From: an uncultured virus (IMG/VR IMGVR_UViG_3300048547_000618)
Taxonomy: Duplodnaviria > Heunggongvirae > Uroviricota > Caudoviricetes
Strand: one strand, 5' to 3'
Virus record (IMG/VR): IMGVR_UViG_3300048547_000618
Length of the DNA stretch: 64,000 bases
Of the stretch, positions 19,484 to 47,688 are shown in pieces; the stretch's first letter is position 1, and the number at the start of each line of letters is the position of its first letter. The notes beneath the pieces are model-generated. The model searched no databases, was not told the DNA's origin, and worked only from the letters and a program-made list of their open reading frames with translations. A program made the translations under genes and the position numbers.

Positions 19484-19536
19484 TACGTATACATTATTTT
19501 TTAGTATGGTCGCAAAAGTAAAAGGTGTTTCGTAAT

Positions 19537-20139
19537 ATGATTAAAGTTGGTGAAACTATTCCAAATATAAAAACCATGCATAAAGTCGGTCCAACTTGGG
19601 ATAGAAGATTAGTTACTATATCTCCTGCTGGAAAAATTGCTCTTATGATGTCAGGCGGTATAGATAGTTTAGTTTTATATAATTTAATTAAGTCGTATAA
19701 TCCAGATGTGTACACTATAGATAGAAAAGATGGATTCGACAATCCATCTCGAGTAGAGTCCTTAACAAATCAAAAAGTTCATAGATTTAAAGAAACTACT
19801 TTAAATCCAGATTTGAGGATAAAAGAAGCCATTGCTTCCATTCAAAGTAAATATGATCAATTATACATTGGAATAAATCATACTCCACCGAGTCATTATT
19901 TTCCAGATTTAAAAGACGGTGCTCCTTACAGACCTTGGAGAATACAAAATAACGATAAACTAATCGCGCCTTTTCTTCATTTATATAAATATCACATTAT
20001 AGATCTAGCAAATAAGTTAAATATAGATTTATCAAATACAATGAGTTGCCTTACAAATACTATTAATGAATGCAAAGAATGTTGGCAATGCAGAGAAAAA
20101 ATCTGGGCATATAAACAATTGGAAGGAGTTTCAAAATAG
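19537..20139 (+). CDS. QueC-like PP-loop ATPase
   Basis: MSGGIDS PP-loop; PF..LYKYHII; SC...CKECWQC Zn site. Confidence 0.7.
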   Translation: MIKVGETIPNIKTMHKVGPTWDRRLVTISPAGKIALMMSGGIDSLVLYNLIKSYNPDVYTIDRKDGFDNPSRVESLTNQKVHRFKETTLNPDLRIKEAIASIQSKYDQLYIGINHTPPSHYFPDLKDGAPYRPWRIQNNDKLIAPFLHLYKYHIIDLANKLNIDLSNTMSCLTNTINECKECWQCREKIWAYKQLEGVSK

Positions 20140-20162
20140 AACACTTTTCTAAATTAAACGAC

Positions 20163-20699
20163 TTGCCAATTTTTGAAAATTTAGAAGACGAGTTAAGACA
20201 GCTCATATCAAAAGGTTTGGTAAATTGGAATCTTAACCAAATTTGCTTGAATGCTCCGGGAGGAAAATCTCATGACTGGACTATAGGATGTAAAAGCTTA
20301 TATTACAATTGGGATAAAGTAGTTAAAGATAAAGCAGGAAACATAGTTCGTTTACCAAAATTTGAACATCCGCTATACGATGAAGATTTTATTGTTCTGT
20401 GTGATGTTTTTAGAGGAACAATTTTCGAAGAAGTTTTTAATCTTCTAAATGATCGATACACAATAGGAAGATTAAGACTAATGCGCAGTGTTCCTTTTGC
20501 TTGTACTAGTTGGCATAAAGATGTTAGTAAAAGATTGCATTACCCAATAAAAACAGATCAATCCTGCAAGATGGTAATAGAAAATGAGGTATTTCATATT
20601 CCTTATAATGAGTGGTGGATTACTAATACAGAAAAAATGCATGCAGCCTTTAATGGTAGTAGATCAGAAAGAATTCATTTGGTTGGAGTTTTACTATGA
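20163..20699 (+). CDS. 2OG-Fe(II) oxygenase-like (Asp/Asn beta-hydroxylase type); start uncertain
   Basis: RLRLM, WHKD..RLHYPIKT and HAAFN..RIHLV (HxD...H triad). Confidence 0.7.
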   Translation: MPIFENLEDELRQLISKGLVNWNLNQICLNAPGGKSHDWTIGCKSLYYNWDKVVKDKAGNIVRLPKFEHPLYDEDFIVLCDVFRGTIFEEVFNLLNDRYTIGRLRLMRSVPFACTSWHKDVSKRLHYPIKTDQSCKMVIENEVFHIPYNEWWITNTEKMHAAFNGSRSERIHLVGVLL

Positions 20700-21409
20700 A
20701 TTATGAACCTGGATCTAATTATGATAAACTATCAAACTGGCCGGAATGGGAACATTTTAGAAATCTTTCTTTATCTCGAGATAGATTACCTGAAGAAAAG
20801 TATAGAGAAATTCACACTAAAAATCTTGTTCCTTTGGATATAAAAATTGATTGTGATTTATTTGAAGAAGAGATAAAAAGATACGACCATTTATTCGAGC
20901 AATTTGGACCTACTCATACTGACTTAGAAAGGTATTCTCTTGGACTTACAGACCTTGAAAATCCAATTGATATGAAACCAAGTCCAGTTAATTGGCCAAT
21001 GGATGTGTGGTGTTTAGAACATCCAGACAACCCATTGTTTGATACAGATTTCAAATATCCAAATGAAATAATGAAAAATATGAAATCTTTAGATCCTATG
21101 CAAATATTTGACGGAATGTTAGCACGTTGTACTATATTAAAATGGAACACGGGGGCACATTTCAAACCACACATTGATGTAACTATTCCTCCTGCAAATT
21201 TGAGAATATGGGGAACTAACGATCCAGAAAATAATCATTTTTGTTTTTGGGATGAAGAAAAACAAGAATATATAGAAGAAGAAAACGTTGAAAAAGGCAG
21301 ATTATATCTGGCTGATACAGCAAAATGGCATCACGCTTACTCGACTGCGGAAAGAGTATATACTTTCTTTTTTGCTCTTCAGGTCAATGCTTACGAGGTG
21401 TTAAAATGA
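20696..21409 (+). CDS. 2OG-Fe(II) oxygenase-like protein
   Basis: FKPHID...DTAKWHHA. Confidence 0.6.
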   Translation: MNYEPGSNYDKLSNWPEWEHFRNLSLSRDRLPEEKYREIHTKNLVPLDIKIDCDLFEEEIKRYDHLFEQFGPTHTDLERYSLGLTDLENPIDMKPSPVNWPMDVWCLEHPDNPLFDTDFKYPNEIMKNMKSLDPMQIFDGMLARCTILKWNTGAHFKPHIDVTIPPANLRIWGTNDPENNHFCFWDEEKQEYIEEENVEKGRLYLADTAKWHHAYSTAERVYTFFFALQVNAYEVLK

Positions 21410-21954
21410 GTTTGATAATGTTGTACGTATTTTATTGGATAATGGCTGCTATAGGATTAACTATCGGTTATCATAGATGTTTATCGCACAATGAACTAAA
21501 ATTAAATCCTATTTTAGAATTTTTTGTTTTGTACATTGGATTGCTATGTTGCGCAAGATCTCCGTTGACTTGGGCTGCTATGCATAGAATGCATCATGCT
21601 TATTCTGATACTGAATTAGACCCTCACAGCCCAAAACATAAAGGAGCGATAACAGTTTTGTTTTCAACGTTTAGAGTAAAGTCTATTCCTAGAAAATTTA
21701 TAAAATCTTTATACAAAAATCCTAGAGCAATGTTTTTACACAAGTTTATGTGGATTATTTTATTGGTAACTTATTTAATAGCGTATTTGATAAATCCAAT
21801 CGTTCTGCTTTACTTAGCAGCACTTTTACCCATATCATTTGTTAGTTTCGGTCTAATAAACTTTTTTGGACATGACGAAAATGGACCAACTAATAAATGG
21901 TGGATAAATATTTTTGCACCTTTTGAAGGAAATCATTATGACCACCACACTTAA
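21406..21954 (+). CDS. Membrane fatty-acid desaturase (delta-9-like)
   Basis: Three His boxes HRCLSH, HRMHH(AYSDTELDPHSP) and HYDHH; TM segments. Confidence 0.85.
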   Translation: MSLIMLYVFYWIMAAIGLTIGYHRCLSHNELKLNPILEFFVLYIGLLCCARSPLTWAAMHRMHHAYSDTELDPHSPKHKGAITVLFSTFRVKSIPRKFIKSLYKNPRAMFLHKFMWIILLVTYLIAYLINPIVLLYLAALLPISFVSFGLINFFGHDENGPTNKWWINIFAPFEGNHYDHHT

Positions 21955-22525
21955 GAGAAGACATGAGCTTCCAAATTTTAAAAAAATAGAACACGTTCAA
22001 GTTGATGTAGATCGTCTCTTAAAGTGTTTTGAAAACTTCCATCATGAACAAGATTCAATTAGTGAGGTCTGTGGTAGTCCTTATCTGAATGACAAGTATA
22101 AGCAAACACCAGTTACTGGAGTCAAAGGTGAGCTGACGTATCTTAGTAATGGTAATGAAGATGAGAGATGCTATGGTGAAATCTTACCAGAATACAAAGG
22201 AACATATGTTGAAGAAGTGATTGGTATGTTTAAGTCACCAATCACTCGTAGCAGACTGATCGTAAAAGAACCAGGTGCTATGATTCTTCCACATATTGAT
22301 TATGATACAAACTATAGTATTCGAGTTTATATTCCACTCAAAACAAATCCTTGGGCTATGACTGCAGTGAAAAGTAAGACTGATGAAATACCAGAAGTCA
22401 GACATTTAAAAGCAGATGGTAGTGCTTGGTTTGTAAATCCAGGTTGTTTGCATAGTGCCTGGAATATTGGTGGTACAGATGATATTCGATTAATTCTATG
22501 CATTAATGGACAGGATGATTTATAA
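21938..22525 (+). CDS. 2OG-Fe(II) oxygenase-like (Asp/Asn beta-hydroxylase type)
   Basis: RSRL..PG..ILPHID, IPLKTN and HSAWN..R. Confidence 0.7.
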   Translation: MTTTLKRRHELPNFKKIEHVQVDVDRLLKCFENFHHEQDSISEVCGSPYLNDKYKQTPVTGVKGELTYLSNGNEDERCYGEILPEYKGTYVEEVIGMFKSPITRSRLIVKEPGAMILPHIDYDTNYSIRVYIPLKTNPWAMTAVKSKTDEIPEVRHLKADGSAWFVNPGCLHSAWNIGGTDDIRLILCINGQDDL

Positions 22526-22571
22526 TGGAAGCAGTATATTATGATATTAATTTAAAGACAGCAACAATTGT

Positions 22572-22579
22572 TATAAATA
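22572..22579 (+). promoter_or_regulatory. T4-type late promoter
   Basis: TATAAATA ending 18 nt before the 22598 ATG, with RBS AAGGAG. Confidence 0.7.
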
Positions 22580-22597
22580 ATCAAAAGGAGATTATCG

Positions 22598-22903
22598 ATG
22601 ACAACAGAAACACAGACAATAATTATTGCATCATCAGAAACTTATGCACAAGAGGATGATATGATATCCGCAACTTCTGAAGTTTTGATTAACTCCATTG
22701 AAGTTGATGATGTTGCAATGTGGGAATTTATTTGGGAAACTCTTCAGCCAGAAAGTTGGTCTCGTGATTTCTCAAATAATAATACTATTAATGTCACAAG
22801 AACCTATGATGCAGTTCATAGTGATCAAGTAAAAGCATTTTATGATACTGCTAAAGCTGCTTGGGAACAAGCTGGCTTTACTGTAGATATTACATATACT
22901 TAA
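22598..22903 (+). CDS. Acidic hypothetical late protein
   Basis: Late promoter plus strong RBS. Confidence 0.7.
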   Translation: MTTETQTIIIASSETYAQEDDMISATSEVLINSIEVDDVAMWEFIWETLQPESWSRDFSNNNTINVTRTYDAVHSDQVKAFYDTAKAAWEQAGFTVDITYT

Positions 22904-23369
22904 CCTGATATCTCTTTACAACTTCATCAAAAGATAAATCAAAGACACTGAATTTGAGAAGCACTCGGTCAGTGTCTTTTTCTGTTTGGAATACTGCGTG
23001 TTCTACTTGAGTGTTTAATATTGCTGACTTATAATAGAAGTCGCCATCTCGAAAACTAATTGATGATGTTCCATCAAGAACAAAGTTAAAGCTGCACCCA
23101 GTTCCTCTATCTTTATGCCAAGGGAGAGTAAAGCCACTTTTCTGAATATAATATCTTGGTCGTATGTCACTAAGATCAAGATCAGTTTTATATTTCTGTG
23201 CTAAGTCCCAAGCCAAACCTTCATTTGTATGTTTTTGCAACCAATCATCCAAATAGCGATTATTCTTTGCATCATGATAAGGTTGATAATCATCAAAAGA
23301 CATGGCTTCATTAAGTAATAGTTCTTTTGAAATTGGAAAGTTTATGTGATAGAGTGCTTTGTGTTCCAT
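22890..23369 (-). CDS. 2OG-Fe(II) oxygenase-like protein
   Basis: LPWHKD...NTQVEHAV..R. Confidence 0.6.
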   Translation of the reverse strand: MEHKALYHINFPISKELLLNEAMSFDDYQPYHDAKNNRYLDDWLQKHTNEGLAWDLAQKYKTDLDLSDIRPRYYIQKSGFTLPWHKDRGTGCSFNFVLDGTSSISFRDGDFYYKSAILNTQVEHAVFQTEKDTDRVLLKFSVFDLSFDEVVKRYQVKYM

Positions 23370-23857
23370 ATCCCTACAGCTTCACTATAAAATAGATTAC
23401 CTAATTGAAATTTAATCATTTTTCTTTTTGGGCCAGATTTAACACCATGTCTTCGTGCAACGTTTAATATAGCACACGTATAAGTTATTTCTCCAAAGTC
23501 TTTATAATACACTGGAGCAGGATCTTCAGAAAGAACTATATTAATACAAGCTCTATGACCCATATCTTTGTGTGGTGGTATTTCAATATTTTCAGATAAC
23601 TGAAACATTTTACCAACAGGTTCAAAACCATAGACAGAAGCAATATACTCTCTAATCTTATCCATTTCAGGAAGGAAACGATAATCATCAATGGTCCTTG
23701 TCAGCCAATCTGGTTGATAAGAAAACCACGTTTCACCTTTGGTTTGGCGACTAGGTGTATAAGGAACTAGCTCAGTTGAATCGAATTCTTTAATCAAAGC
23801 TTCTTTATCATATTTTAATTCTATATGATTAATAAAGTCTTGGTAATTTAAAATCAT
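23342..23857 (-). CDS. 2OG-Fe(II) oxygenase-like protein (paralog of 22890-23369)
   Basis: IPPHKD...NVARRHGV..R. Confidence 0.6.
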   Translation of the reverse strand: MILNYQDFINHIELKYDKEALIKEFDSTELVPYTPSRQTKGETWFSYQPDWLTRTIDDYRFLPEMDKIREYIASVYGFEPVGKMFQLSENIEIPPHKDMGHRACINIVLSEDPAPVYYKDFGEITYTCAILNVARRHGVKSGPKRKMIKFQLGNLFYSEAVGIWNTKHSIT

Positions 23858-24386
23858 TTTTAAACCCTTCTAACGTAGCTATGTTTTGCCAACAACTTTT
23901 TTCATTTTTATTTGGACTAGATGGACAAGTCCAATATAAACCATCTATAACTTTATACTTGTTTTTTACCACTTCATTTTGAATATTAACAGATCTTTTT
24001 AAAGCATTAATATGATTTAGCATACTATAAAATGGAATTCCACCTTGTTTTAATACTATTTCTGTTTGCATTGGCATTAAAATTTGGCTGCTAATGGCTT
24101 TATTAGGTTTATAGTACGGATTACCTAGATTGTACTGACGTATGGACGGAAAATAAAAACTTCTATCACCAACTCTAAAATAATTATCTGGCCAATATTT
24201 GTATCGCCATATTCCAGATATAGCAACAATTTCCCCTTCTAATTTTACTGCAAAGAAATGACTGTATCCATTTACTCTATCTCTAAAGGTTTTAAAATTT
24301 TCTGGGTGAATCTCAGCAGCTCTATCTGTTACTTCAAATAAAGTATCTTTATCATGTAATATATCTATTATTTCAAGTGACATCAA
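23829..24386 (-). CDS. Hypothetical protein, possibly GNAT-like
   Basis: FFAVKLEGEIVAISGI beta-hairpin pattern; weak. Confidence 0.4.
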   Translation of the reverse strand: MMSLEIIDILHDKDTLFEVTDRAAEIHPENFKTFRDRVNGYSHFFAVKLEGEIVAISGIWRYKYWPDNYFRVGDRSFYFPSIRQYNLGNPYYKPNKAISSQILMPMQTEIVLKQGGIPFYSMLNHINALKRSVNIQNEVVKNKYKVIDGLYWTCPSSPNKNEKSCWQNIATLEGFKNDFKLPRLY

Positions 24387-26823: not shown

Positions 26824-27406
26824 ATTTCAATCCATTATACATATCAATTGGCGCATCCCATGTTGCAGGTGATTTAACACTATTCACTAAGCCTTGTTCA
26901 AACGTATTGTGTGGTACCTTTTCGTGAACAATAAATCTGTCTATACCTTTATACTTACGCATAAAGTAATCTTTATTTTCTAAAAAGTGTTCCCATACAT
27001 CGCGCTGTTCACCAGCAGTCCATGTAATTACAGAACTATTTATGTGTACATCATAAGCATGCGGAGCCATATACAAATCGTCTTTCCAATAATCACGTAT
27101 GACTGTTAGACCTTTCCATGTAATAAACTCAGACGGATCTCTTTTAATATCCATATCCAAATCAAAGAACAAACACTTACCTTCTACAGGAAGATCTTCA
27201 CTGAACAGCGCAAGCTTGTTCCACCAATACTTTAATGATGGCTTGTTAAAACACCAAATGATATTTACTTGTTCATCAATACCTTGTGGGTATTCTGTAT
27301 AACAATGAAATTTTGCATTTGGGTAATATTGAACAAGCTGAGAATAAAGTCGATTTACATGACCTGCGTGGTACTTATCTCCGTGCTTTACAAATATAAT
27401 ATTCAT
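26798..27406 (-). CDS. GT-A glycosyltransferase-like protein
   Basis: GDKY...VNRLY, WWNKLALF, FFDLD and INSSV. Confidence 0.7.
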   Translation of the reverse strand: MNIIFVKHGDKYHAGHVNRLYSQLVQYYPNAKFHCYTEYPQGIDEQVNIIWCFNKPSLKYWWNKLALFSEDLPVEGKCLFFDLDMDIKRDPSEFITWKGLTVIRDYWKDDLYMAPHAYDVHINSSVITWTAGEQRDVWEHFLENKDYFMRKYKGIDRFIVHEKVPHNTFEQGLVNSVKSPATWDAPIDMYNGLKYELPRKSL

Positions 27407-28599
27407 TTTAATTTTCCGCATACTTTAACACAAGCGTGGCAAGCCGTTTCAGGAGTTTCCCAATGCTCAGGAAGCTTTTCTTTAAACCACGTTGATTCCA
27501 TTATATCATAGATACTACTATAATGTAAATTAAAATCTTTCCAATTGTCAACATATTCTTGCATTAATGGATGTTTGGGATCAGCATGTTTGCCAGTTGA
27601 CGTAATCATATATTGAGTGTCTTGATCTTTTTGGTAGATAGCAGCTCGCTCTAACGATGTTGAAAGATAACAGCATGGCGATACCATACCACTTGCTTGT
27701 ACTTTGATATTATTCTCGCCAACAGCTAAACAATTTATTTCGTATTCTTTCGTTTTTTGTTTGACAGGCTCAACTACCTGTGGTATAATAGGTTTATCCT
27801 CAATAGGTAATAAATTAGATTCATTTGATTTAATATTGGTAACAATATCTTTATGGCGATGATCACGTACTCGACGAGTTCTACGTTCTAATCCTTGTTC
27901 TCTATCTTGTCGTGTAACCTGCTCAAGAATTTCAGTCTCGCCATTCTCGTTTAAAAATTCATATTTAGATCCAGTATGCTGAAAGTTATTTCCTTCTACT
28001 TCATCAAACTTAATTGGCTTTTGTACGCGTTCGTTAACCATATTACGAATATCTTCAAGATAGTCTTGATTGTGTTTAAATAAAACAGTAAGTACTTTGA
28101 TATTTGCATCAGTACCTGAGGTTACTTCTATTGCATCTAATACTTTATTGAGATCGGATCCTCGGCGATAAAAGCTATGCATTTCTTGGTCAATACCGTC
28201 AACATCAAATATAAGTTGAAGTCTTGAACCACCCCAAGCCGCAAGGTTAAACCAAAACTCTTCATCTCTCATGGATCCATTTGTATTTATAGAAATACGG
28301 CAAGTACCTTCTAACGCAAGATACTTAACAATATCCATTAGATCTTTACACATCCCAGGATCGCCGTAAGTTCCTGAAAAATGAATACACCCAATTGATT
28401 GTATAATAGTCGGAGGAAACCATTTCATGAAATCTTTTAGGCTAACAGACGTAAGCGGTAACCACTCCATCTTATTTAAATTATTCCTATGATCTGTCCT
28501 TGAACACTGTGGGCACTTGAGATTACAGTGCGTAGTAAGTTCAACGTCAAACGTTAAGTTATGCCATTGCCATCTCTTATAATTCATCTGACCAATCAA
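27403..28599 (-). CDS. Radical SAM protein with C-terminal SPASM/twitch-like Cys cluster
   Basis: CNLKCPQC; SGTYGDP; C...PCC...CVKVC. Confidence 0.9.
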   Translation of the reverse strand: MIGQMNYKRWQWHNLTFDVELTTHCNLKCPQCSRTDHRNNLNKMEWLPLTSVSLKDFMKWFPPTIIQSIGCIHFSGTYGDPGMCKDLMDIVKYLALEGTCRISINTNGSMRDEEFWFNLAAWGGSRLQLIFDVDGIDQEMHSFYRRGSDLNKVLDAIEVTSGTDANIKVLTVLFKHNQDYLEDIRNMVNERVQKPIKFDEVEGNNFQHTGSKYEFLNENGETEILEQVTRQDREQGLERRTRRVRDHRHKDIVTNIKSNESNLLPIEDKPIIPQVVEPVKQKTKEYEINCLAVGENNIKVQASGMVSPCCYLSTSLERAAIYQKDQDTQYMITSTGKHADPKHPLMQEYVDNWKDFNLHYSSIYDIMESTWFKEKLPEHWETPETACHACVKVCGKLK

Positions 28600-29644
28600 A
28601 TCCTCTTATTTCATTCATAATATTAATTTTATTTTGTAACTCGTTATATTTATGAGGATTAAACTTAGATATTAGTCCGCGATCTATAGAGTCTAACTCT
28701 TCTTGAGTTCTCGTATTAAGACAATCCATCTCAGCTGGCCAACGAACAAAATTGTAATCATTATAATTTTGAATATGCCATTTTGTATACTCAAAATCTT
28801 CGTAAAAGCTTTTAATTTCTTCCATATCTAATATATTAAAATATGATATTGTAGGCGAAACACTAAATCTGATACCAGTTTCTTCATATATTCTTTTAAG
28901 TGTATATAGAGTCTGGTCAAAAGGAGTACTTCGTATCCACTCATATTTTTTACCAATATGATCTAAGCTAGCAGTTAAGCTTAAGTTTTTAATTCTTTTT
29001 AGTACTTTTATAAATCTATTAGAAATAATAGACGCGTTTGATAATATCCAAACCTGGCAATCTGGATTTACTTCTACTAATTTTTCCAAAATTTTTGCGT
29101 TTCTAATATCAGCGAAAGGTTCTCCACCTTTTATATTAAGAACTTTTAGCTCAGGTAAAACTTTAATAATTTTATCCATTGCATCATTGGACAAATTAAA
29201 CTGTTTTCGTTTTTGAAATTTATCATTAAACAGTTGTTCTATTGTTTCCCACTTAGAACTAAAATAGCTGTTACACGTAACGCATGTTTGATTGCATATA
29301 TTACTCGTGGTAATTTCTAAAAATTTAATAGATCCATCCATCGCATAGTCTGAATACTCGTATGATTGCTGAAAATGCCGACCTACGTTATTTTCTATTT
29401 GCAGCTTACAATTATGGCATTCTGGTGTGCCTTCAATGTTGTTTTCTTGTAAACTTTTTCTTAAATAGATTAAAAAATCACTATAAAAATATTCATTTAT
29501 AGAATCAGTATGGTCTATATGTATACCATCTAAAACGTTGTGATTATTATTTAACATCTCATAACCGCCCATCATGCAACACGGCTTGATAAACCCCTGC
29601 GAATCTATAACAGCTCCATGATCAGGCCAATAGCACGGTTTCAA
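28577..29644 (-). CDS. Radical SAM protein with N-terminal SPASM/twitch-like Cys cluster
   Basis: C..G..KPCC...CHNC; CNQTCVTC; GGEPF. Confidence 0.9.
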   Translation of the reverse strand: MKPCYWPDHGAVIDSQGFIKPCCMMGGYEMLNNNHNVLDGIHIDHTDSINEYFYSDFLIYLRKSLQENNIEGTPECHNCKLQIENNVGRHFQQSYEYSDYAMDGSIKFLEITTSNICNQTCVTCNSYFSSKWETIEQLFNDKFQKRKQFNLSNDAMDKIIKVLPELKVLNIKGGEPFADIRNAKILEKLVEVNPDCQVWILSNASIISNRFIKVLKRIKNLSLTASLDHIGKKYEWIRSTPFDQTLYTLKRIYEETGIRFSVSPTISYFNILDMEEIKSFYEDFEYTKWHIQNYNDYNFVRWPAEMDCLNTRTQEELDSIDRGLISKFNPHKYNELQNKINIMNEIRGFDWSDEL

Positions 29645-30741
29645 CTCAACAATCCTATAACTTTATTAATTTCAGCCACGTGATTAGACTTGTTGGTTTT
29701 ATTTAAAAGTTCTTTCATTTTATTTAATGCAGATCGTTTAACCTCATCGGACATGGTTTCAATTCTCCAATCCTTTGTATGCTCTCTCCATTCTCTAACA
29801 TAGACATTAATAAATGTATTAAAACCATTTTCAATAGCATACTCAAAAAATTTATCCATATTTTCGGCATTTACTGACATAAATGTCGCGTTAATTGTTA
29901 CATTTTCAGTACCAATTGCTTCTTTAAATTTTTGAATATTATCATATGTATTTTTGTAGTTTGCGCCAATTCTAATTTGCTTATATTCTTCTTCTATAAC
30001 GGTATCACAAGAGATAGTTACTTTTAAATTATTATTTTCACATATGCTTTTTACTTGCTTATTGAATATTGTGCCATTAGTACAAACCCTTAATACAACA
30101 GATGGGTTAATTTCTGAAATAACTTTTGCTAATTTAAACATACCTTTATGGGCGAAAGGCTCTCCACCAACAAATCTAATTTCTTCAAGATGAGGGATAA
30201 ATTCTTTTAGTTGCTCAATTAACTCATTCATATTTTCTTCTTTATCAAACTCATTTGTTTGGCGATAGTATGGATGTTTAGAAACTAAATGCTTATCTCT
30301 TCCCATTCTCAATTTTGATGATAATCCTGCATGGCACATCTCACATTCTAAATTGCACAAATCTGATATTTCAAATTCAATAATTTTAGGATAATTACCA
30401 GAATTCATTGCGTATTCTAATCTATCATCTCCCATATTGTAATCATATTCAACAATGGCAGGATGAGAGTCTGCTTCAATTCTCTGCAAACAAATTTGAC
30501 ATCCTTCATGTAGTTCTTGATTTAAAAATGCATCTTGGTATTCTACGTTTAATCCATTAAACCAATATTCCTTTAAACTACCGTCATGCAACCAATTATG
30601 TCTTTTGTTATTAAAACAACACGGATGCACTGAAGCGTCTTTTGAAATTCTCATATGATTGAATGCAGCATAACAACCAATCATTTTATGTTCTTCAGGT
30701 ATTCTTCGTCTCGCCTGAAACTTATCCCAATTTTTAATCAT
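29641..30741 (-). CDS. Radical SAM protein with N-terminal Cys cluster
   Basis: HPCC...CQIC; CNLECEMC; GGEPF; TNGT. Confidence 0.9.
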   Translation of the reverse strand: MIKNWDKFQARRRIPEEHKMIGCYAAFNHMRISKDASVHPCCFNNKRHNWLHDGSLKEYWFNGLNVEYQDAFLNQELHEGCQICLQRIEADSHPAIVEYDYNMGDDRLEYAMNSGNYPKIIEFEISDLCNLECEMCHAGLSSKLRMGRDKHLVSKHPYYRQTNEFDKEENMNELIEQLKEFIPHLEEIRFVGGEPFAHKGMFKLAKVISEINPSVVLRVCTNGTIFNKQVKSICENNNLKVTISCDTVIEEEYKQIRIGANYKNTYDNIQKFKEAIGTENVTINATFMSVNAENMDKFFEYAIENGFNTFINVYVREWREHTKDWRIETMSDEVKRSALNKMKELLNKTNKSNHVAEINKVIGLLS

Positions 30742-31904
30742 TTTAATCTTTCAATATATTGTTTAAACATAGTCAAGTTTTTATTCGACAAGTAATCATT
30801 TTTCTTATTCATATAAATTTCAGCATTTCCTAAATAACTTTTAAGTTCTTGTATATATTCTTTTGATTGAAGTTCAACCGATTGAGGATAAACAATATCT
30901 CTAAACTTTTTTTCGTTCATCATCGGAACAATAAGATGATAAGAAAATTCAATTTGTTTTTCGTTACACCATGAAATAATATTAGGCAATTCCCTAACGT
31001 TCATCTTACTTATCACAAAGGAACAACCGATGTAGGCTTGGGTTTGTCTAAGTGTTTCGATATTATTTAAAACGTTTTCTAAATTACCGTTAATTCTTAA
31101 TTGAGGATATGTTTCTGGATCTAATGAGTCTAATGATACTGTAAATCTTACATTATTTCTTTGAGCTATTTTGCGAACGGCGCCATTCATAATACTACCA
31201 TTAGTTGTAAAATGAACGCCTAAATTTTCAGGCTGTTCTTCATCAATCATTTTAAGAATATCATATACAACCCTTTGTGCAAATGGCTCGCCACCTGTAA
31301 AGTTAAGCCTATAAATGTTATGAATAATACTTCTTAAATCTTCAATAAAAGCTTCTTTAATTTCTGTATCGTCAAAAACGCTTTTAAATCTTGGATCATC
31401 CTGTAATCCCATTGCTTCCATATGTTGAGATGAATGAAAAGGACTGCAAAATGCACAATGATAATTGCAACTATTTGAAAGTTCTAATTCTATTTCTCGT
31501 GGATATTCGTGAGAAATACTTCTTTCGCCGCCAACCCAATCAAAATCTAAGCTACTAGGAGGCTTATCTTGTTTACATTGGTTTATACAATAAAGACAAA
31601 AATCATGTAGGCTACCTTCCATAGATTCTAATCTCATAGCTTCAAAAGGTTTGCCATTCCATATATCAAGCAAGCTTTTTTCAGGTGACCAAGTTTCAAT
31701 TGCGATATTTTCACCTCTGTATGTCGTTCCGTCTTCACGAGTAAAATATCTATCACTTCCTTTTTTCATTTGAAAAGGACACGATCGAACATCCCCTTTT
31801 TTATTAATATGCATAGCTTGAAATGGAGACCAGCAAGTTATAGGCTTATACATATCTGGAAAGTTATCAGATCTATACTTATTTACAACATCTACGTATT
31901 TCAT
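30738..31904 (-). CDS. Radical SAM protein with N-terminal Cys cluster
   Basis: GDVRSC...CLYC; CNYHCAFC; GGEPF; TTNGS. Confidence 0.9.
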   Translation of the reverse strand: MKYVDVVNKYRSDNFPDMYKPITCWSPFQAMHINKKGDVRSCPFQMKKGSDRYFTREDGTTYRGENIAIETWSPEKSLLDIWNGKPFEAMRLESMEGSLHDFCLYCINQCKQDKPPSSLDFDWVGGERSISHEYPREIELELSNSCNYHCAFCSPFHSSQHMEAMGLQDDPRFKSVFDDTEIKEAFIEDLRSIIHNIYRLNFTGGEPFAQRVVYDILKMIDEEQPENLGVHFTTNGSIMNGAVRKIAQRNNVRFTVSLDSLDPETYPQLRINGNLENVLNNIETLRQTQAYIGCSFVISKMNVRELPNIISWCNEKQIEFSYHLIVPMMNEKKFRDIVYPQSVELQSKEYIQELKSYLGNAEIYMNKKNDYLSNKNLTMFKQYIERLK

Positions 31905-33100
31905 TTTCTATATTCCTGTAAGTAAGGAGCCAATTCCCAAATGTCTTCGTTATTTTCTCGCGCCACATGACAATAGTCAATCCACTTTACCATGCGTTCC
32001 TGCCACCTTGGTTTTTCATCTGCCTCAAAATCTGGCTTAACACTAAGCATATTGTTAATACCGCTTACCAATAGCTTATCACTATGATATAAAGAATCAT
32101 TTGATTTTGTATATTTACTGTCCAAATATTCAAAGAATTTGTTTAAGCCTTCTTCAATATGATGATTATACAAATATAAAGGAGAGCAATACTTTGGAAA
32201 CGTTACCATATTTGCCATACTAATTCTATCAACACCATCTACGTCTCTCCAATAATCAATAAGTTCAGGTAAGTGCATCCAATTATATACTGAAACGGTT
32301 GATACGATTACCACTTTGCGACCTGAATGCGCGTGATATCTTTTAATATTATTAGCGGTCTTAGCAAAATTACCACCACGAATCCAATCGTATATTTCTC
32401 CAACACCGTCTATACTTGCTTGTATATGAACCTCATTAATGCGATGTAATAATTCAATGACTGTGTTTGTTACTAATTGCATATTAGTACAAATCTCAAC
32501 GCGGCAATTTGGATTTGTGTCTGCAAGCTTTCTTAATATTTTTATATTGTTCTGATCTGCAAAAGGTTCGCCACCTTTAATAGTTAAGTGTTGCAACCCA
32601 GGAACAATTTCAAGTACTTTGTCAACATCAGCCGTTGTCATCTTATATGTTTCAGTATGGAATTTATGGTTTTCGTTTCTCCAATCTAAACCATAATCAA
32701 CTGCCATCTGTTCGTATGGCGCCCACTTTGAAGAATACTTACCTGAGCAAGTAACGCACATTTGGTTACAGATATTACTTGTTGTAATTTCAAGAAAACG
32801 AATTGGTATTACGTCAGACGCAAGATCTTCTTCATATGTTGGAAAATTAAAACGATTATAGGAATCAAATCGCGCAATACGACCTGCGTTATAATGACGC
32901 CAGCATACATCACATTGTTTTGGAAAGTTTTGTTCTTTGAAATCTTTTCTTAACTTATCATATATTGGACCATTAAAAAAGTCTGATAAGTTATCAATAT
33001 CTTTAATGTGAGAAACCGCAACATTATCACCGGCACAGCATAAAACCATTTCGCCTATTGGATTAATTGTAATGCCCGTTTCAGGAACCATGCATTTCAT
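31901..33100 (-). CDS. Radical SAM protein with N-terminal Cys cluster
   Basis: VLCC...CDVC; CNQMCVTC; GGEPF. Confidence 0.9.
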   Translation of the reverse strand: MKCMVPETGITINPIGEMVLCCAGDNVAVSHIKDIDNLSDFFNGPIYDKLRKDFKEQNFPKQCDVCWRHYNAGRIARFDSYNRFNFPTYEEDLASDVIPIRFLEITTSNICNQMCVTCSGKYSSKWAPYEQMAVDYGLDWRNENHKFHTETYKMTTADVDKVLEIVPGLQHLTIKGGEPFADQNNIKILRKLADTNPNCRVEICTNMQLVTNTVIELLHRINEVHIQASIDGVGEIYDWIRGGNFAKTANNIKRYHAHSGRKVVIVSTVSVYNWMHLPELIDYWRDVDGVDRISMANMVTFPKYCSPLYLYNHHIEEGLNKFFEYLDSKYTKSNDSLYHSDKLLVSGINNMLSVKPDFEADEKPRWQERMVKWIDYCHVARENNEDIWELAPYLQEYRK

Positions 33101-36432: not shown

Positions 36433-36783
36433 ATGGCAGGTAAGAAAAAAGCAGCTGCGCCATCTAAATATGATCCAAAAGCAGCGGATTATAATGGCGA
36501 TGGAGTGATCACTAATGAAGAACTCGATATGCAGCGTAAAATGCTAGAAATGGAAGATGCCGATGCACAACGCGATGCCATACGTAAAATGGCGTGGTTT
36601 GCTCTATTCGGTCTTTTACTTTATCCAATTGGGATAATGTTAACATCCTGGTTAGGATTAGATACTGCTGCACAATTAATTGCAGATATTGCCCCAACAT
36701 ATTTTGCTTCAATTGCAGTCTTAGTTTCAGCCTTCTTTGGTGCTGATGCATTGAAAGGCCGCGGCGGAAGTAGCGACGACTAA
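36433..36783 (+). CDS. Two-TM membrane protein with EF-hand-like loop (holin-like?)
   Basis: DYNGDGVITNEE followed by two TM helices. Confidence 0.55.
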   Translation: MAGKKKAAAPSKYDPKAADYNGDGVITNEELDMQRKMLEMEDADAQRDAIRKMAWFALFGLLLYPIGIMLTSWLGLDTAAQLIADIAPTYFASIAVLVSAFFGADALKGRGGSSDD

Positions 36784-41882: not shown

Positions 41883-41890
41883 TATAAATA
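41883..41890 (+). promoter_or_regulatory. T4-type late promoter
   Basis: TATAAATA upstream of the exported-protein operon. Confidence 0.7.
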
Positions 41891-41933
41891 TATATAATAG
41901 AGTAAAGTATGCTTTTATCATTACTAATATGGG

Positions 41934-42506
41934 ATGAACATTATGACTAAACATTTACTCTTTCTGTTTTTATTATTTATACCTTTCATTGGAACAACCG
42001 CAGTGGAGGCAGAGCCAATAGTTACAGAAAGTACAACAGAAAGTACTATCAATAGTAATAGTACATCGGAGACTACAGTTAATTCTCCACCGCCGTCGGC
42101 GATCGCCCCTTCGATTAATTCAGCTAACTCAGACTTATGTACAGTTGGAGTTTCCGGCGCAGTCCAAACACAAATATTGGGTATATCAGGTGCCAAGATG
42201 GTTCGTGATATGAATTGTGAAAAGTTAAAGAACGCTAAAACATTATATGATATGGGAATGAAAGTTGCTGCGGTTTCAGTGATGTGCCAAGATCCTCGCG
42301 TATTTAACGCTATGATGGATGCAGGAACACCTTGCCCTTATGATGGTATGATTGGGGACGCAGCTAAAGCAGCATGGATAGCAAATCGCGATGAACAACC
42401 TGAAGATCCGCAAAGTAATATAATAAAGGATATGAACGATGAGACTAAGTCTACTTTGTTCGGCGGTGGCATTGTTGGCGGCCTCCTCCTCTTATTGTTA
42501 CTCTGA
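41934..42506 (+). CDS. Exported/membrane-anchored Cys-containing protein
   Basis: Signal peptide, S/T-rich linker, 4 Cys, hydrophobic C-terminus. Confidence 0.7.
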   Translation: MNIMTKHLLFLFLLFIPFIGTTAVEAEPIVTESTTESTINSNSTSETTVNSPPPSAIAPSINSANSDLCTVGVSGAVQTQILGISGAKMVRDMNCEKLKNAKTLYDMGMKVAAVSVMCQDPRVFNAMMDAGTPCPYDGMIGDAAKAAWIANRDEQPEDPQSNIIKDMNDETKSTLFGGGIVGGLLLLLLL

Positions 42507-43338
42507 TACAACGTATCATTCAACAAATAACGCCGCAGCGGATGCTTTAGCGTGGGCAATGAAAAATGTATTACCTGATTCAGCTTCACCTTATATTACA
42601 GTAGAAGTAAATGGTTTAGCTTATCAATATACAATGGTAAAAGATCCTGAGGCAGACGCAAAGGTTACAATTTCAAACGAAGACCTTGCAAATCCTGGGC
42701 AAAATATTTTTGAAGAAACAGATGATTGGAGTGGTAACCCAGGTGGGTCTGTAAGAAAATTTTTTAGATTTGGATATACAGATTCTTCTAGGTGGGGAGA
42801 TGGAGAAATAAGTGTTGAAGGAGAAGGTACGGTTACGGATCCATTTGTGGTTTATAATTATAAGATGGTGGTAGATGATAGTTATAAATGTCTTTCACCA
42901 TTATCAGATCCAAGTTGTCCTGGATATTCGACAGCATTACAAGAATATTTAGCTTCACTTGCCGTTCCACCGTCAATTGGAGATCCTTATTATGATGAAT
43001 GGGTTCAGGCTGAATTGAACCGTGAAGCAAATGTAGAAGACGAAGAAGAAATAGAACAAACAACCAATAATGAAGTAGAGGATGATTTGGAAGAACAGCT
43101 TGGCGGTAATAATAATATTGACAAATTAGTCGATAGTACCGCGCAACAAAAAATCTTAGCTGATTTATCGTTAAATCCAAAGATTGTACCATATTATGAA
43201 ATAACTATTCCTGGAGGTATATACGAAGATACTTTAGTATTGCCTTCATCTAGTTATCCAGACAACCGAAGAGCGATGAGAAACTTGGCATCTGATGCTA
43301 ATCATAAATCTATGGTACGCTCTCAATATGAACGATAA
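42439..43338 (+). CDS. Exported acidic protein
   Basis: Signal peptide; C..PLSDPSCPGY. Confidence 0.65.
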   Translation: MRLSLLCSAVALLAASSSYCYSDTTYHSTNNAAADALAWAMKNVLPDSASPYITVEVNGLAYQYTMVKDPEADAKVTISNEDLANPGQNIFEETDDWSGNPGGSVRKFFRFGYTDSSRWGDGEISVEGEGTVTDPFVVYNYKMVVDDSYKCLSPLSDPSCPGYSTALQEYLASLAVPPSIGDPYYDEWVQAELNREANVEDEEEIEQTTNNEVEDDLEEQLGGNNNIDKLVDSTAQQKILADLSLNPKIVPYYEITIPGGIYEDTLVLPSSSYPDNRRAMRNLASDANHKSMVRSQYER

Positions 43339-43348
43339 GGAGAAATAT

Positions 43349-43852
43349 ATGTTCAAACATCTAATATTTAGTAGCGTAGCAGCTATTATGCTAGGCGGAT
43401 CTGTAGGCGCAGCAGAAACTCCAATCACCGGTAACGTTGCGTCAAAATGCTCAATTTTTACAGACACAGCTGGGGTTTATGGTAACCCTACACCAGACGA
43501 ATTGAGCACAATCCCAGCGGACGGCGGTGTTTATCCAGTTGTACGCTATGACGTTGCTATTGCAGACTACTATACCGCTAAAATTTCCTGGCCAACATCG
43601 TTTACTTCCGCACCGAGTCTTAGTGACTCAGTAACGTGGGATGGCGAAGTTACAGTATCTAATACATCAGATACTAATATGTCAGGATATGAAGCAGCTA
43701 AAATTGAATACGATAATCACACTGAATACGATCTTAGTGTAGCTGGGTCTACTTGGTTTCAAGTTGAATCAGAAGCAAAGTATGGCGTAGGCAAATCACT
43801 ACCAGGTGGTGAATATAAAGCTAATGTTGTTGCAGAGTGTATCGCAGACTAA
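43349..43852 (+). CDS. Exported beta-rich protein, fimbrial-subunit-like
   Basis: RBS AAGGAG; signal peptide; ITGNVASKCSI...PGGEYKANVVAEC. Confidence 0.55.
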   Translation: MFKHLIFSSVAAIMLGGSVGAAETPITGNVASKCSIFTDTAGVYGNPTPDELSTIPADGGVYPVVRYDVAIADYYTAKISWPTSFTSAPSLSDSVTWDGEVTVSNTSDTNMSGYEAAKIEYDNHTEYDLSVAGSTWFQVESEAKYGVGKSLPGGEYKANVVAECIAD

Positions 43853-43891
43853 GGTGTTAATTTGCGTAAAGAGTAAAGTGAAGGATTAAAA

Positions 43892-44266
43892 ATGAAATAC
43901 CTAGTGAGTTTGATTTTTGTGTTAATAAGTACTGCGGTTACATCACACGAATTGACGCCAACATACCCTGAGTTACGACCTGCGTACGTAGATGGTGTGT
44001 TGGTGACAACTATGGATATATGGAATAGAAGAACAGATGTAGAGTATTACGAAATAGAAGTCTTTGATAAATATTGGGAGGCACTTCCGTTTGCTTCACA
44101 AGATAAAGTTATAAAGCTTGGTTATTTAGAAAAGAAACAATTTGAGGTTTATATCAAAAGTGAACACAAAGCTAAGGCTGTATATATATGTACTACCTCT
44201 AAACTTTTGAGGGATGATGTACTATCAACCGGAGTAAAATCAAGGATATGCTCCAAATTAAAGTGA
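43892..44266 (+). CDS. Exported Ig-like protein (pilus-chaperone-like?)
   Basis: Signal peptide; alternating beta pattern; two C-terminal Cys. Confidence 0.5.
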   Translation: MKYLVSLIFVLISTAVTSHELTPTYPELRPAYVDGVLVTTMDIWNRRTDVEYYEIEVFDKYWEALPFASQDKVIKLGYLEKKQFEVYIKSEHKAKAVYICTTSKLLRDDVLSTGVKSRICSKLK

Positions 44267-44273
44267 GAACATT

Positions 44274-44684
44274 ATGCGTTATATTATTTCATTGTGTTTA
44301 ATGTTGTTTACGACAACAGTAAACGCAGACTCTGGTTCGGTAAGTTTGGCATTACCGAGTGCACCAGGTAATTACCAATCCGATAAATTTAGGGCTGGTG
44401 ATTTAGATTGTTCTAATGCCATCGGATCGGCTACACAACTTGAGCTCGGTGTAACTGGTCTTATTGACGGCGGTTATTATGATGATGTGAATCGATATGT
44501 TAATGATAGGAGAGTTGATAACGTTGGTGTATATGCAAGGATTGTTATACCACTCGGCGCAAGACCTAAAGAAAGAATTGATTGTAATAGATTATATGAA
44601 ATGGAATTACAGTTAAAATCGCTGGAATTAGAACGTTTAAGAAGAGAGCTTCAGCAGTTGAAAGAATTATCTTTCGAGGAGTAA
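44274..44684 (+). CDS. Exported protein with C-terminal coiled coil
   Basis: Signal peptide; DLDCSNAIG, GVYARIVIPLG and IDCNRLY. Confidence 0.65.
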   Translation: MRYIISLCLMLFTTTVNADSGSVSLALPSAPGNYQSDKFRAGDLDCSNAIGSATQLELGVTGLIDGGYYDDVNRYVNDRRVDNVGVYARIVIPLGARPKERIDCNRLYEMELQLKSLELERLRRELQQLKELSFEE

Positions 44685-44687
44685 TAT

Positions 44688-45383
44688 ATGGCTGAATTTG
44701 AATTTGCCGGAACCACGTTTAAAGGTGGTAAAATGTTTGCTGTCTTAACCGCACTATCTACTTTAGGTGGTGGCGCATGGGCCGGTTTTGAATTTTATGC
44801 GGACTATATGGACATGAAAGAAATTGTTCAAAACATTGACATTGACGAAATCGCCGCAGCAAATGCATTGCAACTACAAAAGCTTGAAGACGCTATAGGA
44901 TATACACAAGATATTAAAGACGATTTAAAAGGTGACATTGCCCGTTCTGAAAATTTAATAGGAGTATTAGAAGATCAGGTTATTGCGGCTGAAACCACCG
45001 TAAGAGATTTGCGTAAAGATATATACGCAAAACTTGATGCCTTCGAAGAAAGGCTAAGAATAACTCTTAAAGATAACCAAGATACAATGGCAAACTTAAG
45101 AGATACAATTTCAACTAACCTTGACAATTCAGAAGCAAGAATTAAGAATACACAAAATAGTATTGGTGGTACTCTTGAAGGTATTCGTACTGAAATGAAC
45201 GAACTTCAAAAAGACGTAACTTCGTCTATCCGTGAAGTTGAAGCGACGATAAGAGCGTCTGAAAAAGACGTACGTAATACTATGCGTGATACACAAACTA
45301 ATATTGATAGTGAAATGAGATTATTAGAAAAGGACCTCAAAGAAACAATACAAGAAGCATTAGATAATCCGTTATCAGAATAG
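44688..45383 (+). CDS. Membrane-anchored long coiled-coil protein
   Basis: N-terminal TM then a long heptad-rich region. Confidence 0.7.
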   Translation: MAEFEFAGTTFKGGKMFAVLTALSTLGGGAWAGFEFYADYMDMKEIVQNIDIDEIAAANALQLQKLEDAIGYTQDIKDDLKGDIARSENLIGVLEDQVIAAETTVRDLRKDIYAKLDAFEERLRITLKDNQDTMANLRDTISTNLDNSEARIKNTQNSIGGTLEGIRTEMNELQKDVTSSIREVEATIRASEKDVRNTMRDTQTNIDSEMRLLEKDLKETIQEALDNPLSE

Positions 45384-45717: not shown

Positions 45718-46059
45718 ATGGAAATTTTAGCATTCATAACGTTTTTTGCTATGGGAAACACTATTAACAACTTGGAAAACGAAGTAGCGACATTAGGTTA
45801 TTTTCAAGAACAAAATACTGCAGAAAGTATAAAGCAGCAAGAACAAATTAATAATCTTATAATTAATACGGAAAAATTAGAAATTCAAGTTAAAGAATTA
45901 AAAAAGCAAACTGAGATGAATCATCTTGAATTATCAGGAGCAATCGCTTCAAAATATGCAAGGCATGAAACGTTTCACGACATGCAACAAATACAAATAG
46001 ATATCATGGAAATGAGACAAGATGATATATTAGAAAAAATGTTAGCAGCAGGGGAGTAA
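45718..46059 (+). CDS. Hypothetical coiled-coil protein
   Basis: Hydrophobic N-terminus plus coiled coil. Confidence 0.6.
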   Translation: MEILAFITFFAMGNTINNLENEVATLGYFQEQNTAESIKQQEQINNLIINTEKLEIQVKELKKQTEMNHLELSGAIASKYARHETFHDMQQIQIDIMEMRQDDILEKMLAAGE

Positions 46060-46061: not shown

Positions 46062-46799
46062 ATGTTAGAAAATTGTGCAAAGATGGCAGAAGTAGCTGAG
46101 CTTGCATACTTAGACGGACCTGAGGCAAAACCTAAATATAAAAAATTAGGTTATGTAGCCCACAAGTTTGTTGAAGTAAACGGTGCACAATGCCACATCA
46201 TTTCAAACAAAGAAGAAATAACAATTGCATTTCGCGGTACCGAACCAAAAGAGTTTTCTGATATTAAGGCAGATTTAAACGCCTTTCCAGATAAACCAAA
46301 CAATGGACACGGATTAGTACATAACGGGTTTCAAGAAGAAGTAAACAAAGTATGGCCTGACATTGAAAAGGCTTTATCTAAAATGAAAACAGATGGAAAA
46401 CATTTGTTTATTTGCGGCCATTCTTTAGGAGCTGCAATGGCAACAATTGCAACAAGCCGACTCGGCGATAAAGTTACAGCTTTATATACATATGGGTCGC
46501 CAAGAGTAGGGACTAGAAAATTTGTTAAATCGTTTGCTCATATACCTCATTTCCGCCATGTTAACAATAACGACTTGGTCACTTGTGTTCCTTTTGCTGC
46601 AATGGGATATAGACACCATTCGCAACCGCGGTACATCAACTACTTCGGTAATATTAGAAAAATGAGTAGATGGCAAAGAACAAAAGATAAATGGCGTGGA
46701 AGATTACGTGCATTTAAAAAAGGAATGCCATTCGACGGGGCATACGATCACGGTATGAACCATTATTGTAAATACACGAAAGAAAATGAAAATGTCTGA
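46062..46799 (+). CDS. Class 3 lipase (alpha/beta hydrolase)
   Basis: IAFRGT, VHNGF, GHSLGAA, YTYGSPRVG and NNNDLVTCVP. Confidence 0.9.
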   Translation: MLENCAKMAEVAELAYLDGPEAKPKYKKLGYVAHKFVEVNGAQCHIISNKEEITIAFRGTEPKEFSDIKADLNAFPDKPNNGHGLVHNGFQEEVNKVWPDIEKALSKMKTDGKHLFICGHSLGAAMATIATSRLGDKVTALYTYGSPRVGTRKFVKSFAHIPHFRHVNNNDLVTCVPFAAMGYRHHSQPRYINYFGNIRKMSRWQRTKDKWRGRLRAFKKGMPFDGAYDHGMNHYCKYTKENENV

Positions 46800-47034
46800 T
46801 GAAATTGAAGTACCAAAAATATTACAAAAACCTGTACCATTAAAAGATGAAGATACACCAGAAGGAACTTTTGATTTAAGTTTTAGAATAATGAACAACG
46901 AAGTTATTGGATTTGCAATGCGAGTCGACGATTTCAAAGCAAAGTGGCTTATCCTTGGTCTTATAGCTATTGCAATACTAGGTTTTGTTGCAACAGCCTT
47001 TGGTCCAATGATAATGAGTACTTTCGGTGGCTAA
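46786..47034 (+). CDS. Small membrane protein
   Basis: C-terminal TM. Confidence 0.6.
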   Translation: MKMSDEIEVPKILQKPVPLKDEDTPEGTFDLSFRIMNNEVIGFAMRVDDFKAKWLILGLIAIAILGFVATAFGPMIMSTFGG

Positions 47035-47218
47035 ATTATTCGACAATTTTTTTCACAGTAAAGCAGCACATATAACTTATGCTATAAGTACAATACTTTT
47101 TATCTTGCATTTATTATTACATGCTGTACCGGTTGGTTTAGGTGGATGGGCTATATGGTCATATGTTGGTCATGGTCATACGCACGGAAACGGAACTCAT
47201 AATCATAAGGATAAATAA
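47027..47218 (+). CDS. Small membrane protein with His-rich tail
   Basis: TM segments then GHGHTHGNGTHNH; GTG start. Confidence 0.5.
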   Translation: MAKLFDNFFHSKAAHITYAISTILFILHLLLHAVPVGLGGWAIWSYVGHGHTHGNGTHNHKDK

Positions 47219-47533
47219 ATGGAAATGTTAACTAGAATGTTTGGCGATACGCTGTGGATATATACAGCTATCGGCGGATCAGTAATTGGCGCAGCATTTT
47301 TGGCATGGTTCAGAAATACACACGCAGCACTTTATCTGATGTCGAAGTTTGATGCATTTTTAGATTATTTAGTAGACCGCTTTGGTTGGGATTGGCTACA
47401 AGACGATCCTGAAGCTTGGCGTAAACGCTATCCTAAAGTCACAAAGAAAATTGATGATTTAGAATTGCGGCTGCGAACGCTAGAAGCTGGATCTAAAGCA
47501 AAAGTAATAAAACAGAAGGAGACCAAAAAATGA
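47219..47533 (+). CDS. Membrane protein
   Basis: N-terminal TM; abuts its neighbours. Confidence 0.65.
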   Translation: MEMLTRMFGDTLWIYTAIGGSVIGAAFLAWFRNTHAALYLMSKFDAFLDYLVDRFGWDWLQDDPEAWRKRYPKVTKKIDDLELRLRTLEAGSKAKVIKQKETKK

Positions 47534-47688
47534 ATTGGTTAAAATCAAAACTTACAGAGCGTTCAAGTATGGACGGAATTTTAATGGTTGCCGCTGGTGC
47601 TGCCATTATTGTATTCAGCCCGCTAACTCAAATGATTGCTTATGCAGCAATTGCTTGGGGAGCATGGACAATCTGGCGTAAAGAATAA
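47530..47688 (+). CDS. Small two-TM holin-like protein (52 aa, not in ORF track)
   Basis: MNWLKSKLTERSSMDGILMVAAGAAIIVFSPLTQMIAYAAIAWGAWTIWRKE; RBS AAGGAG. Confidence 0.6.
   Translation: MNWLKSKLTERSSMDGILMVAAGAAIIVFSPLTQMIAYAAIAWGAWTIWRKE

Follow-up and report, generated by a model that had tools for sequence, protein, structure and literature searches.

Why would a T4-like ocean phage place, behind a presumed late promoter, six genes whose products are predicted to enter the envelope of its host? The question is raised by positions 41,883 to 45,383 of a 64,000-nucleotide (nt) stretch of DNA (the window) from the uncultured virus IMGVR_UViG_3300048547_000618, whose source record has 133,849 bases, is 63% complete and carries replication and structural genes that are T4-like as judged from their translations. 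A first-pass annotation, made from the sequence alone, had proposed that this block builds a pilus-like or surface structure. We find that the block is a single late operon, whose genes we name A to F in order of their start positions, and that it combines two mobile units, one nested inside the other: A-B-[C-D-E]-F. Our favoured reading, to which we give a probability of about 40%, is that it makes a minimal donor-strand fibre on the infected cell, without the outer-membrane usher of chaperone-usher pili. All six open reading frames (ORFs) were found at the starts given earlier, and the features are as follows, with lengths in amino acids (aa).

41883..41890, + strand: presumed T4-type late promoter, TATAAATA, conserved upstream of A
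41934..42506, + strand: A, 190 aa; signal peptide, Ser/Thr-rich stretch, PPPSA and C-terminal poly-Leu tail; part of the phage A-B-F unit
42439..42506, + strand: dual-coding overlap, in which A's hydrophobic tail is B's signal peptide in the +1 frame
42439..43338, + strand: B, 299 aa; signal peptide followed by a beta-rich N-terminal domain, a Cys pair, an acidic linker and a conserved C-terminal motif ending SQY
43349..43852, + strand: C, 167 aa; pilin-like immunoglobulin (Ig) sandwich, N-terminal extension, Cys13/Cys143 (mature numbering) and C-terminal GxY strand
43892..44266, + strand: D, 124 aa; single-domain PapD-like chaperone candidate, Cys82/Cys102 (mature numbering)
44274..44684, + strand: E, 136 aa; signal peptide, four strands, Cys28/Cys86 and C-terminal coiled-coil helix; candidate outer-membrane oligomer
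44688..45383, + strand: F, 231 aa; weak membrane segment at the N-terminus, long coiled coil whose length varies, and conserved C-terminal (D/E)NPL; part of the phage A-B-F unit

The octamer TATAAATA, which we take to be the T4-type late promoter motif, lies ahead of A as the first-pass annotation had said, 44 nt from the ATG of A (41934), and is one of 13 copies in the window. Its place upstream of A is conserved: a search of the 450 nt ahead of A's PPSA motif found it in 34 of 44 testable non-redundant loci, against 85 of 1030 background windows. The six-gene block is likely transcribed late. The RNA libraries X5, X7 and X10 yielded short near-identical contigs over B, C and F at a depth of 2-4, of a kind that cannot show transcription. 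Signal peptides were scored with a hand-written heuristic, not SignalP, on all ORFs of at least 80 aa in the 134-kb record. Eight of 123 were flagged as exported, five of them being the consecutive genes A-E, a run that arose in 5 of 100,000 shuffles and that bears out the five signal peptides noticed earlier. The paired Cys described for the mature proteins are also present and are invariant in all aligned rows, with four in A (29/29 rows) and two each in B (33/33), C (43/43), D (46/46) and E (107/107). Pfam, PHROG and NCBIfam gave no functional family for A-E, and profile searches against solved structures with the A, B, C, D and E alignments returned nothing significant.

Relatives of C (697) and E (1,709) were collected to follow the block through other genomes. 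A search with C gave 65 viral loci, which together with 10 contigs from metagenome-assembled genomes (MAGs) made 50 non-redundant loci. The order A-B-C-D-E-F is kept in 37 of the 50 and none is reordered; 12 others end at or near a contig edge, and in a further contig (L074), which starts at B, F was missed by BLAST and is visible by eye. An independent search with A found ABCDEF in 49 and ABF in two of the 51 loci, out of 80, that had enough flank. Gene order, on which the surface-structure proposal depended, is thus conserved. The 10 MAG contigs (L071-L080) carry the full module in MAGs labelled Melainabacteria, archaea, Aquiluna, Polaribacter and Rhodobacteraceae; they look like binned phage contigs and were not counted as bacterial, and such binning makes database taxa unreliable for these families.

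Each of the two units also occurs without the other. When a pelagiphage A was used as the query, A and F without C, D and E were found in all 52 loci with enough flank (80 fetched); HTVC115P and CRP-810 have both A and F, and Mosig has a weak F match. Patterns of A match ~3,900 stretches of the viral collection, which makes this a common, unexplained late module of ocean phages. Conversely, E is found without A, B or F. Its matches comprise 194 phage records (183 Vibrio, 6 Klebsiella, 3 Erwinia, 1 Stenotrophomonas and 1 Raoultella), of which four were read, and since many of these are cultured Vibrio or Klebsiella phages, the trio is directly testable. The jumbo phages Vibrio phage 2.275.O and Klebsiella phage Miami have the order D-E-C, with no annotated lysis gene within 3.5 kb; their C was identified from where it lies, its signal peptide and the pattern of its Cys, and its profile scores are weak.

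Among bacteria, C-D-E is carried by one plasmid each of V. nigripulchritudo and Mesorhizobium and by a Vibrio replicon, and E matches 9 of 251 genomes of one alphaproteobacterial family, that of genome G150, which is likely a sphingomonad family from the names of D relatives. C and E are present at all nine loci and D at seven, and a display filter may have hidden the other two. The orders seen in bacteria and unrelated phages are CDE, CDEC, CCDE and DEC. Two bacterial loci have two or more C paralogs around D-E, as chaperone-usher pili have major and minor pilins, and two bacterial loci contain an EAL-domain gene. No phage genes were seen in the stretches read around the copies on chromosomes and plasmids. 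In a targeted test, profiles built from phage-type rows reached the bacterial and Vibrio-phage C and D (E-values 3e-7 to 6e-4, database size 100) and did not reach the G150 copies. In two class-wide samples, of 401 and 400 genomes, the phage-type E profile had matches in two genomes and in one, respectively, and two of these three are the centre genomes. Because C-D-E and A-B-F can each be found alone, the six genes do not form a single, inseparable system of the phage, and the first-pass reading is in this respect not supported as written.

The pilin likeness claimed for C is moderately supported. Its AlphaFold2 model is an all-beta sandwich with a predicted local distance difference test (pLDDT) value of 95.3 and residues 1-12 unstructured; by this model, C has an Ig-like fold of the adhesin/pilin type, in line with the Ig or pilin relationship that the earlier proposal required. 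According to PMC10104325, chaperone-usher subunits combine an incomplete Ig fold with an N-terminal donor strand. The free N-terminal extension in the model of C, with I5-x-G7-x-V9 conserved over 43 rows ahead of the invariant Cys, appears donor-strand-like, with a pattern such as a donor strand would be expected to have. A first, phage-heavy alignment matched C to pilins over only 20 columns; after diverse members had been added, hhalign aligned it with the pilins of PapD-linked loci over 140 columns (score 32.4; best of 40 shuffles 12.8). The top Foldseek match was a PapG pilin domain (E-value 3e-3), with CfaB and a type 1 pilus tip subunit among the ten best matches and CsuA/B fifteenth, and further weak structural matches were a bundling pilin (Foldseek) and a cannula subunit (Z 5.7 over 128 residues in a wide structural search). 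C also resembles an Atlas SCPU cluster by a feature match of 0.95, only 14% of that cluster being SCPU members, and neither C nor its bacterial relatives matched the SCPU/Csu pilin family PF05229 above the Pfam cut-off. The fold matches of C are weak and unspecific, and its kinship specifically with chaperone-usher pilins is only moderately supported; generic Ig-like adhesin domains fit as well as those pilins or better, and on this point the earlier comparison is not supported as written.

D had been read as a single Ig-fold chaperone, and its chaperone-like nature finds moderate support in its bacterial relatives. Bacterial D was aligned by hhalign with the first (N) domain of PapD over 92-96 columns at a probability of 59-65 (65 for the 92 columns); the 96-column alignment scored 32.3, compared with 25.5 for the best of 40 shuffles and 7.3 for a cross-control. 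Two of the 120 bacterial D relatives listed are named PapD by their sources, and a phage-only D profile that matches both Vibrio-phage and bacterial D bridges the two sets. The comparison with phage-heavy alignments was not significant, the signal coming after diverse members had been added, and Pfam PapD_N had no match on D itself. It is therefore indirectly, through the bacterial alignment, the source names and the bridging profile, that D qualifies as having a PapD-like chaperone domain, and its homology to the first domain of PapD chaperones is moderately supported by these comparisons. The two Cys of D presumably correspond in position to the F1-G1 disulfide of FGL chaperones. The homolog search covered lengths of 63-252 aa, longer fused forms falling outside this range. 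We consider it probable that D chaperones C into a donor-strand polymer.

What could take the place of the usher? The model of E has four strands, two of them of 11 residues, and a 30-residue helix (pLDDT 77.8, predicted template modelling score 0.44). Strands 3 and 4 alternate strictly across 107 rows, which is the pattern of outer-membrane barrels: one face is hydrophobic and uncharged, the polar face carries E/D39, G41 (107/107), Y69 (102/107) and R/K71, and the two strands are joined by a loop of variable length, 8-35 residues. These strands of E are amphipathic, long enough to cross a membrane and free of charge on their outer face. Its family forms 480 clusters at 50% identity, and among 63 long relatives scanned, C-terminal fusions to SPOR (four) and OmpA (two) were found; as these domains bind peptidoglycan, the coiled coil of E likely points toward the peptidoglycan. 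Given the amphipathic strands, the coiled coil and these fusions, the evidence leans slightly toward E being an outer-membrane oligomer, which would then replace the usher. A complex predictor given four copies of E returned a score of 0.30 against a mark of 0.42, and since the controls likewise were not folded, this is evidence neither way. Foldseek gave no match to the E fold at E-values up to 0.001, and the Atlas search among named clusters gave no usable match. CsgG of curli, trimeric autotransporter anchors and FapF are small oligomeric channels with few amphipathic strands per subunit and a periplasmic helix or coiled coil. The similar anatomy of E is a lead only, drawn from anatomy alone, and E differs from them in that it is not a lipoprotein and has its strands before the coiled coil.

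The first-pass annotation had seen no usher, and we agree. Usher PF00577 had no match in the phage record (63% complete) or in eight of the nine E-bearing genomes, the ninth having one 250 kb from the trio, and the conserved six-gene block contains no usher-sized gene. Canonical chaperones occur in 23 of 121 genomes of the same family, so with one usher in nine the E-bearing genomes show no enrichment of canonical systems. PMC10104325 makes an outer-membrane usher in the operon a criterion of a chaperone-usher pilus. The module is not a member of this class, as no usher was found and the chaperone is not two-domain. Bacteria that have the trio but show no usher gene probably assemble a small fibre, similar to a pilus, along a pathway not yet described. 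A literature search, with supplements and most subscription journals outside its reach, found no description of the module.

The genes that surround the trio in T4-like phages were analyzed in the same way. A has an uncharged amphipathic hairpin flanked by Cys69 and Cys95, followed by a helical domain with Cys118/Cys134; it matches PHROG 20531 (unknown function, E-value 1e-12) and has homologs in 11 phage records, pelagiphages among them. Its C-terminal hydrophobic tail (score 2.41), missed in the first-pass annotation, comes from 68 nt that are read a second time, in the +1 frame, as B's signal peptide, and B's predicted cleavage site coincides with A's stop. In all 35 loci with a located motif, 2 to 8 nt separate this site from the end of A's stop codon and the frame offset is constant; of the pelagiphage-type loci, 53 of 62 have the overlap in that frame. 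The odd cleavage region of B, SSSYCYS, results from reading Leu codons in the +1 frame and suggests that A's hydrophobic tail is under selection. A was also considered as a paralog of E, an idea set aside because the hhalign match was confined to the signal peptides.

B, a candidate adhesin or passenger, had no match in Pfam, PHROG or NCBIfam. In loci without C, D and E, a longer exported protein, B*, fills the gap, and the last 42 columns of B match it (hhalign probability 88.6). Their homology is argued from position, overlap and C-terminal motif, because the B profile had no match to the B* proteins of cultured pelagiphages; B* may have a lectin-like fold. In two CDE-less loci (L194:5458-7167 and L201:5482-7158), B is extended by tandem Cys-rich repeats (C..NPLY...CPGY), as if its single Cys pair had been multiplied into a stalk. 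The description of F as one transmembrane segment plus a long coiled coil stands for the coiled coil, whose family-search matches are generic coiled coils. The N-terminal segment is Gly-rich and weakly hydrophobic, with no 15-residue window above 1.5 on the Kyte-Doolittle scale, which makes membrane anchoring of F probable and not more.

Starting from the gene content and order, the two units, the absent usher match and the predicted Ig fold of C, we infer the following steps. C would be made late, exported to the periplasm, folded and held by D, and polymerised by donor-strand exchange. In the usher's place, the fibre would be anchored or passed by an outer-membrane oligomer of E, with F and A's tail as an inner-membrane brace for the complex and B carried along as an adhesin-like passenger. 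A-B-F is a second, phage-borne unit wrapped around C-D-E. The payoff could be a sticky infected cell that bursts beside new hosts or particles. The chances are a little under even that the fibre reaches the surface through or at E, and adhesion as its purpose is a tentative suggestion. Equally speculative is the fullest version, in which C-D-E is an undescribed three-gene fibre-secretion pathway, with an E ring replacing the usher, that was captured by lytic phages of many families and merged in marine T4-like phages with a second, hairpin-pore unit, A-B-F, to put adhesive fibres on doomed cells and release progeny beside new hosts.

Several observations weigh against such a fibre. Ushers have ~800 residues and the E subunit 118, a fraction of that size, so that many copies would be needed to pass a folded subunit. 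The chaperones of chaperone-usher pili are two-domain proteins, and those compared here have ~240-300 aa, whereas mature D is a single domain of 106 aa; the alignment of phage-only D with sphingomonad-type D covers no more than 22 columns. Every Foldseek E-value for C exceeds 0.001, its TM-scores to pilins are 0.37-0.48, and the wide structural search was headed by MSCRAMM domains of staphylococci (Z 8.0), with a chaperone-usher subunit only at Z 5.6, values that the tool rates as compatible with a common arrangement. C also lacks the C-terminal aromatic residue of canonical pilins, and its Cys pair differs. In Bennett (Thalassavirus) and Vibrio phage 252E42.2, C-D-E lies between tail and lysis genes. 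Finally, the completeness of the nine bacterial genomes is not reported, and an usher could have been missed or be supplied by the host.

The products could instead act at lysis, as a spanin substitute or lysis helper in which F, A and E would bridge the periplasm and disrupt the outer membrane after wall degradation, with C and D as an accessory scaffold. Compared with known spanins (lambda Rz/Rz1, T4 PseT.3/PseT.2 and T1 gp11), F has an i-spanin-like topology of N-terminal segment and coiled coil, A has a similar Pro-rich stretch, Cys and C-terminal anchor, and the module shares overlapping genes and proximity to lysis genes. Bennett, 252E42.2, HTVC023P and L088 have a holin or endolysin gene close to the trio or to A-B-F, and a cell-wall-hydrolase-like cluster was seen by eye in 24 of 76 loci. 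PMC6139136 reports no recognisable spanin in 91 of 677 surveyed phages and makes an outer-membrane lipoprotein with a lipobox a criterion of a two-component spanin. A pattern scan of the 134-kb record for such a lipoprotein found one 44-aa ORF elsewhere and none among A-F; the lack of a credible one would leave room for a substitute, while the missing lipobox also sets A-F apart from spanins, as do the five exported partners and the presence of C-D-E in bacteria outside a prophage context. F fits the layout of a type II inner-membrane coiled-coil protein, with a weakly hydrophobic segment and no spanin PHROG match. A lysis role does not account for C-D-E alone in bacterial chromosomes and plasmids or for the two jumbo phages, neighbours vary among the T4-like loci, and ordinary spanins may exist, as the record is incomplete and the ORF at 45718 has a weak Rz-like match. 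This explanation, which suits A-B-F and the closeness to lysis genes in small phages better than it suits C-D-E, is a serious but unlikely one.

If the products remodelled or shielded the surface, they could block superinfection or delay lysis, for example by masking receptors, with no long fibre. All are predicted to be directed to the envelope, the module is common to unrelated phages of dense marine hosts, and predicted porin-like (21/76) and outer-membrane (6/76) genes were seen by eye among the neighbours. DNA-entry exclusion has an established timing for T4 imm and sp, for which the conserved late promoter is late, and shielding leaves the donor-strand-like extension and dedicated chaperone unexplained, so that we hold it to be quite unlikely. 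The same late promoter would suit decoration of the virion, with C (and B) folded and disulfide-bonded in the periplasm and picked up at lysis as whiskers; Ig folds are common on virions, and tail genes are neighbours in two Vibrio phages. As the trio also belongs to bacterial loci outside phages and to phage genomes (myo-, sipho- and podovirus-like) whose virions are unrelated, and as E and F have membrane-type anatomy, decoration is improbable. Hardly more can be said for the trio as an ordinary chaperone-usher accessory cassette that feeds a host usher in trans, the least probable of the four: an unlinked usher is present in one of the nine E-bearing genomes, but eight genomes have no usher match, D lacks a second domain and E is left unexplained.

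The usher-less fibre would have relatives on two sides. With chaperone-usher pili (archaic Csu/CupE; FGL Caf1M and SafB) the module shares a Sec-exported Ig-like subunit with an N-terminal extension and a GxY last strand, a PapD-like chaperone domain and bacterial operons with extra subunit paralogs. It differs in having no usher, a one-domain chaperone and the small hairpin/coiled-coil protein E, in being carried by lytic phages, and in the C subunit, whose Cys pair sits at the start of the first and the end of the last strand and which has no terminal aromatic. In the donor-strand filaments of Bacillus TasA, archaeal bundling pili, Pyrodictium cannulae and Bacteroidota type V pili, Ig-like subunits polymerise without an usher, as proposed for C. 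These systems are not known to use a PapD-like periplasmic chaperone with a small outer-membrane protein, and no sequence link between them and the module was found. The usher is held essential for chaperone-usher pili; if the fibre is real, a three-gene version without it would be a new minimal outer-membrane secretion route and a possible ancestor or offshoot of chaperone-usher systems, and a virus would give its host cell a sticky surface structure. If the module is a spanin substitute instead, it would bear on how spanin-less phages breach the outer membrane.

Several neighbouring genes may be related to the envelope or to lysis. The ORF at 45718-46059 (+) encodes 113 aa with a hydrophobic N-terminus and a coiled coil, weakly matches an Rz-like spanin PHROG (E-value 0.004) and is present in the three closest loci only. 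In two unrelated Vibrio phages (L067:6308-6511 and L290:3790-3957), a small lipoprotein-like ORF directly 3' of E is possibly an o-spanin or a partner of the trio. A class 3 lipase followed by three small membrane-type proteins (46062-47688, +) is a possible membrane-attack or lysis cassette, and a lipase lies downstream of F in 13 of 76 loci. Another copy of TATAAATA (36376) precedes a 116-aa two-helix membrane protein (36433-36783, +) with relatives in 17 of 76 loci; in L088 a similar gene lies between F and the holin, which makes it a candidate holin-associated gene.

Elsewhere in the window, a DoxX-like membrane protein and an exported plastocyanin/pseudoazurin-like protein (PHROG 515) are encoded at 1665-2795 (-) and are host-type redox genes. 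Five consecutive radical-SAM-like CxxxCxxC proteins are encoded beside glycosyltransferase-like genes at 27403-33100 (-), and a cluster of small oxygenase-like, desaturase-like and QueC-like genes lies at 19525-24386 on both strands, both as judged by eye.

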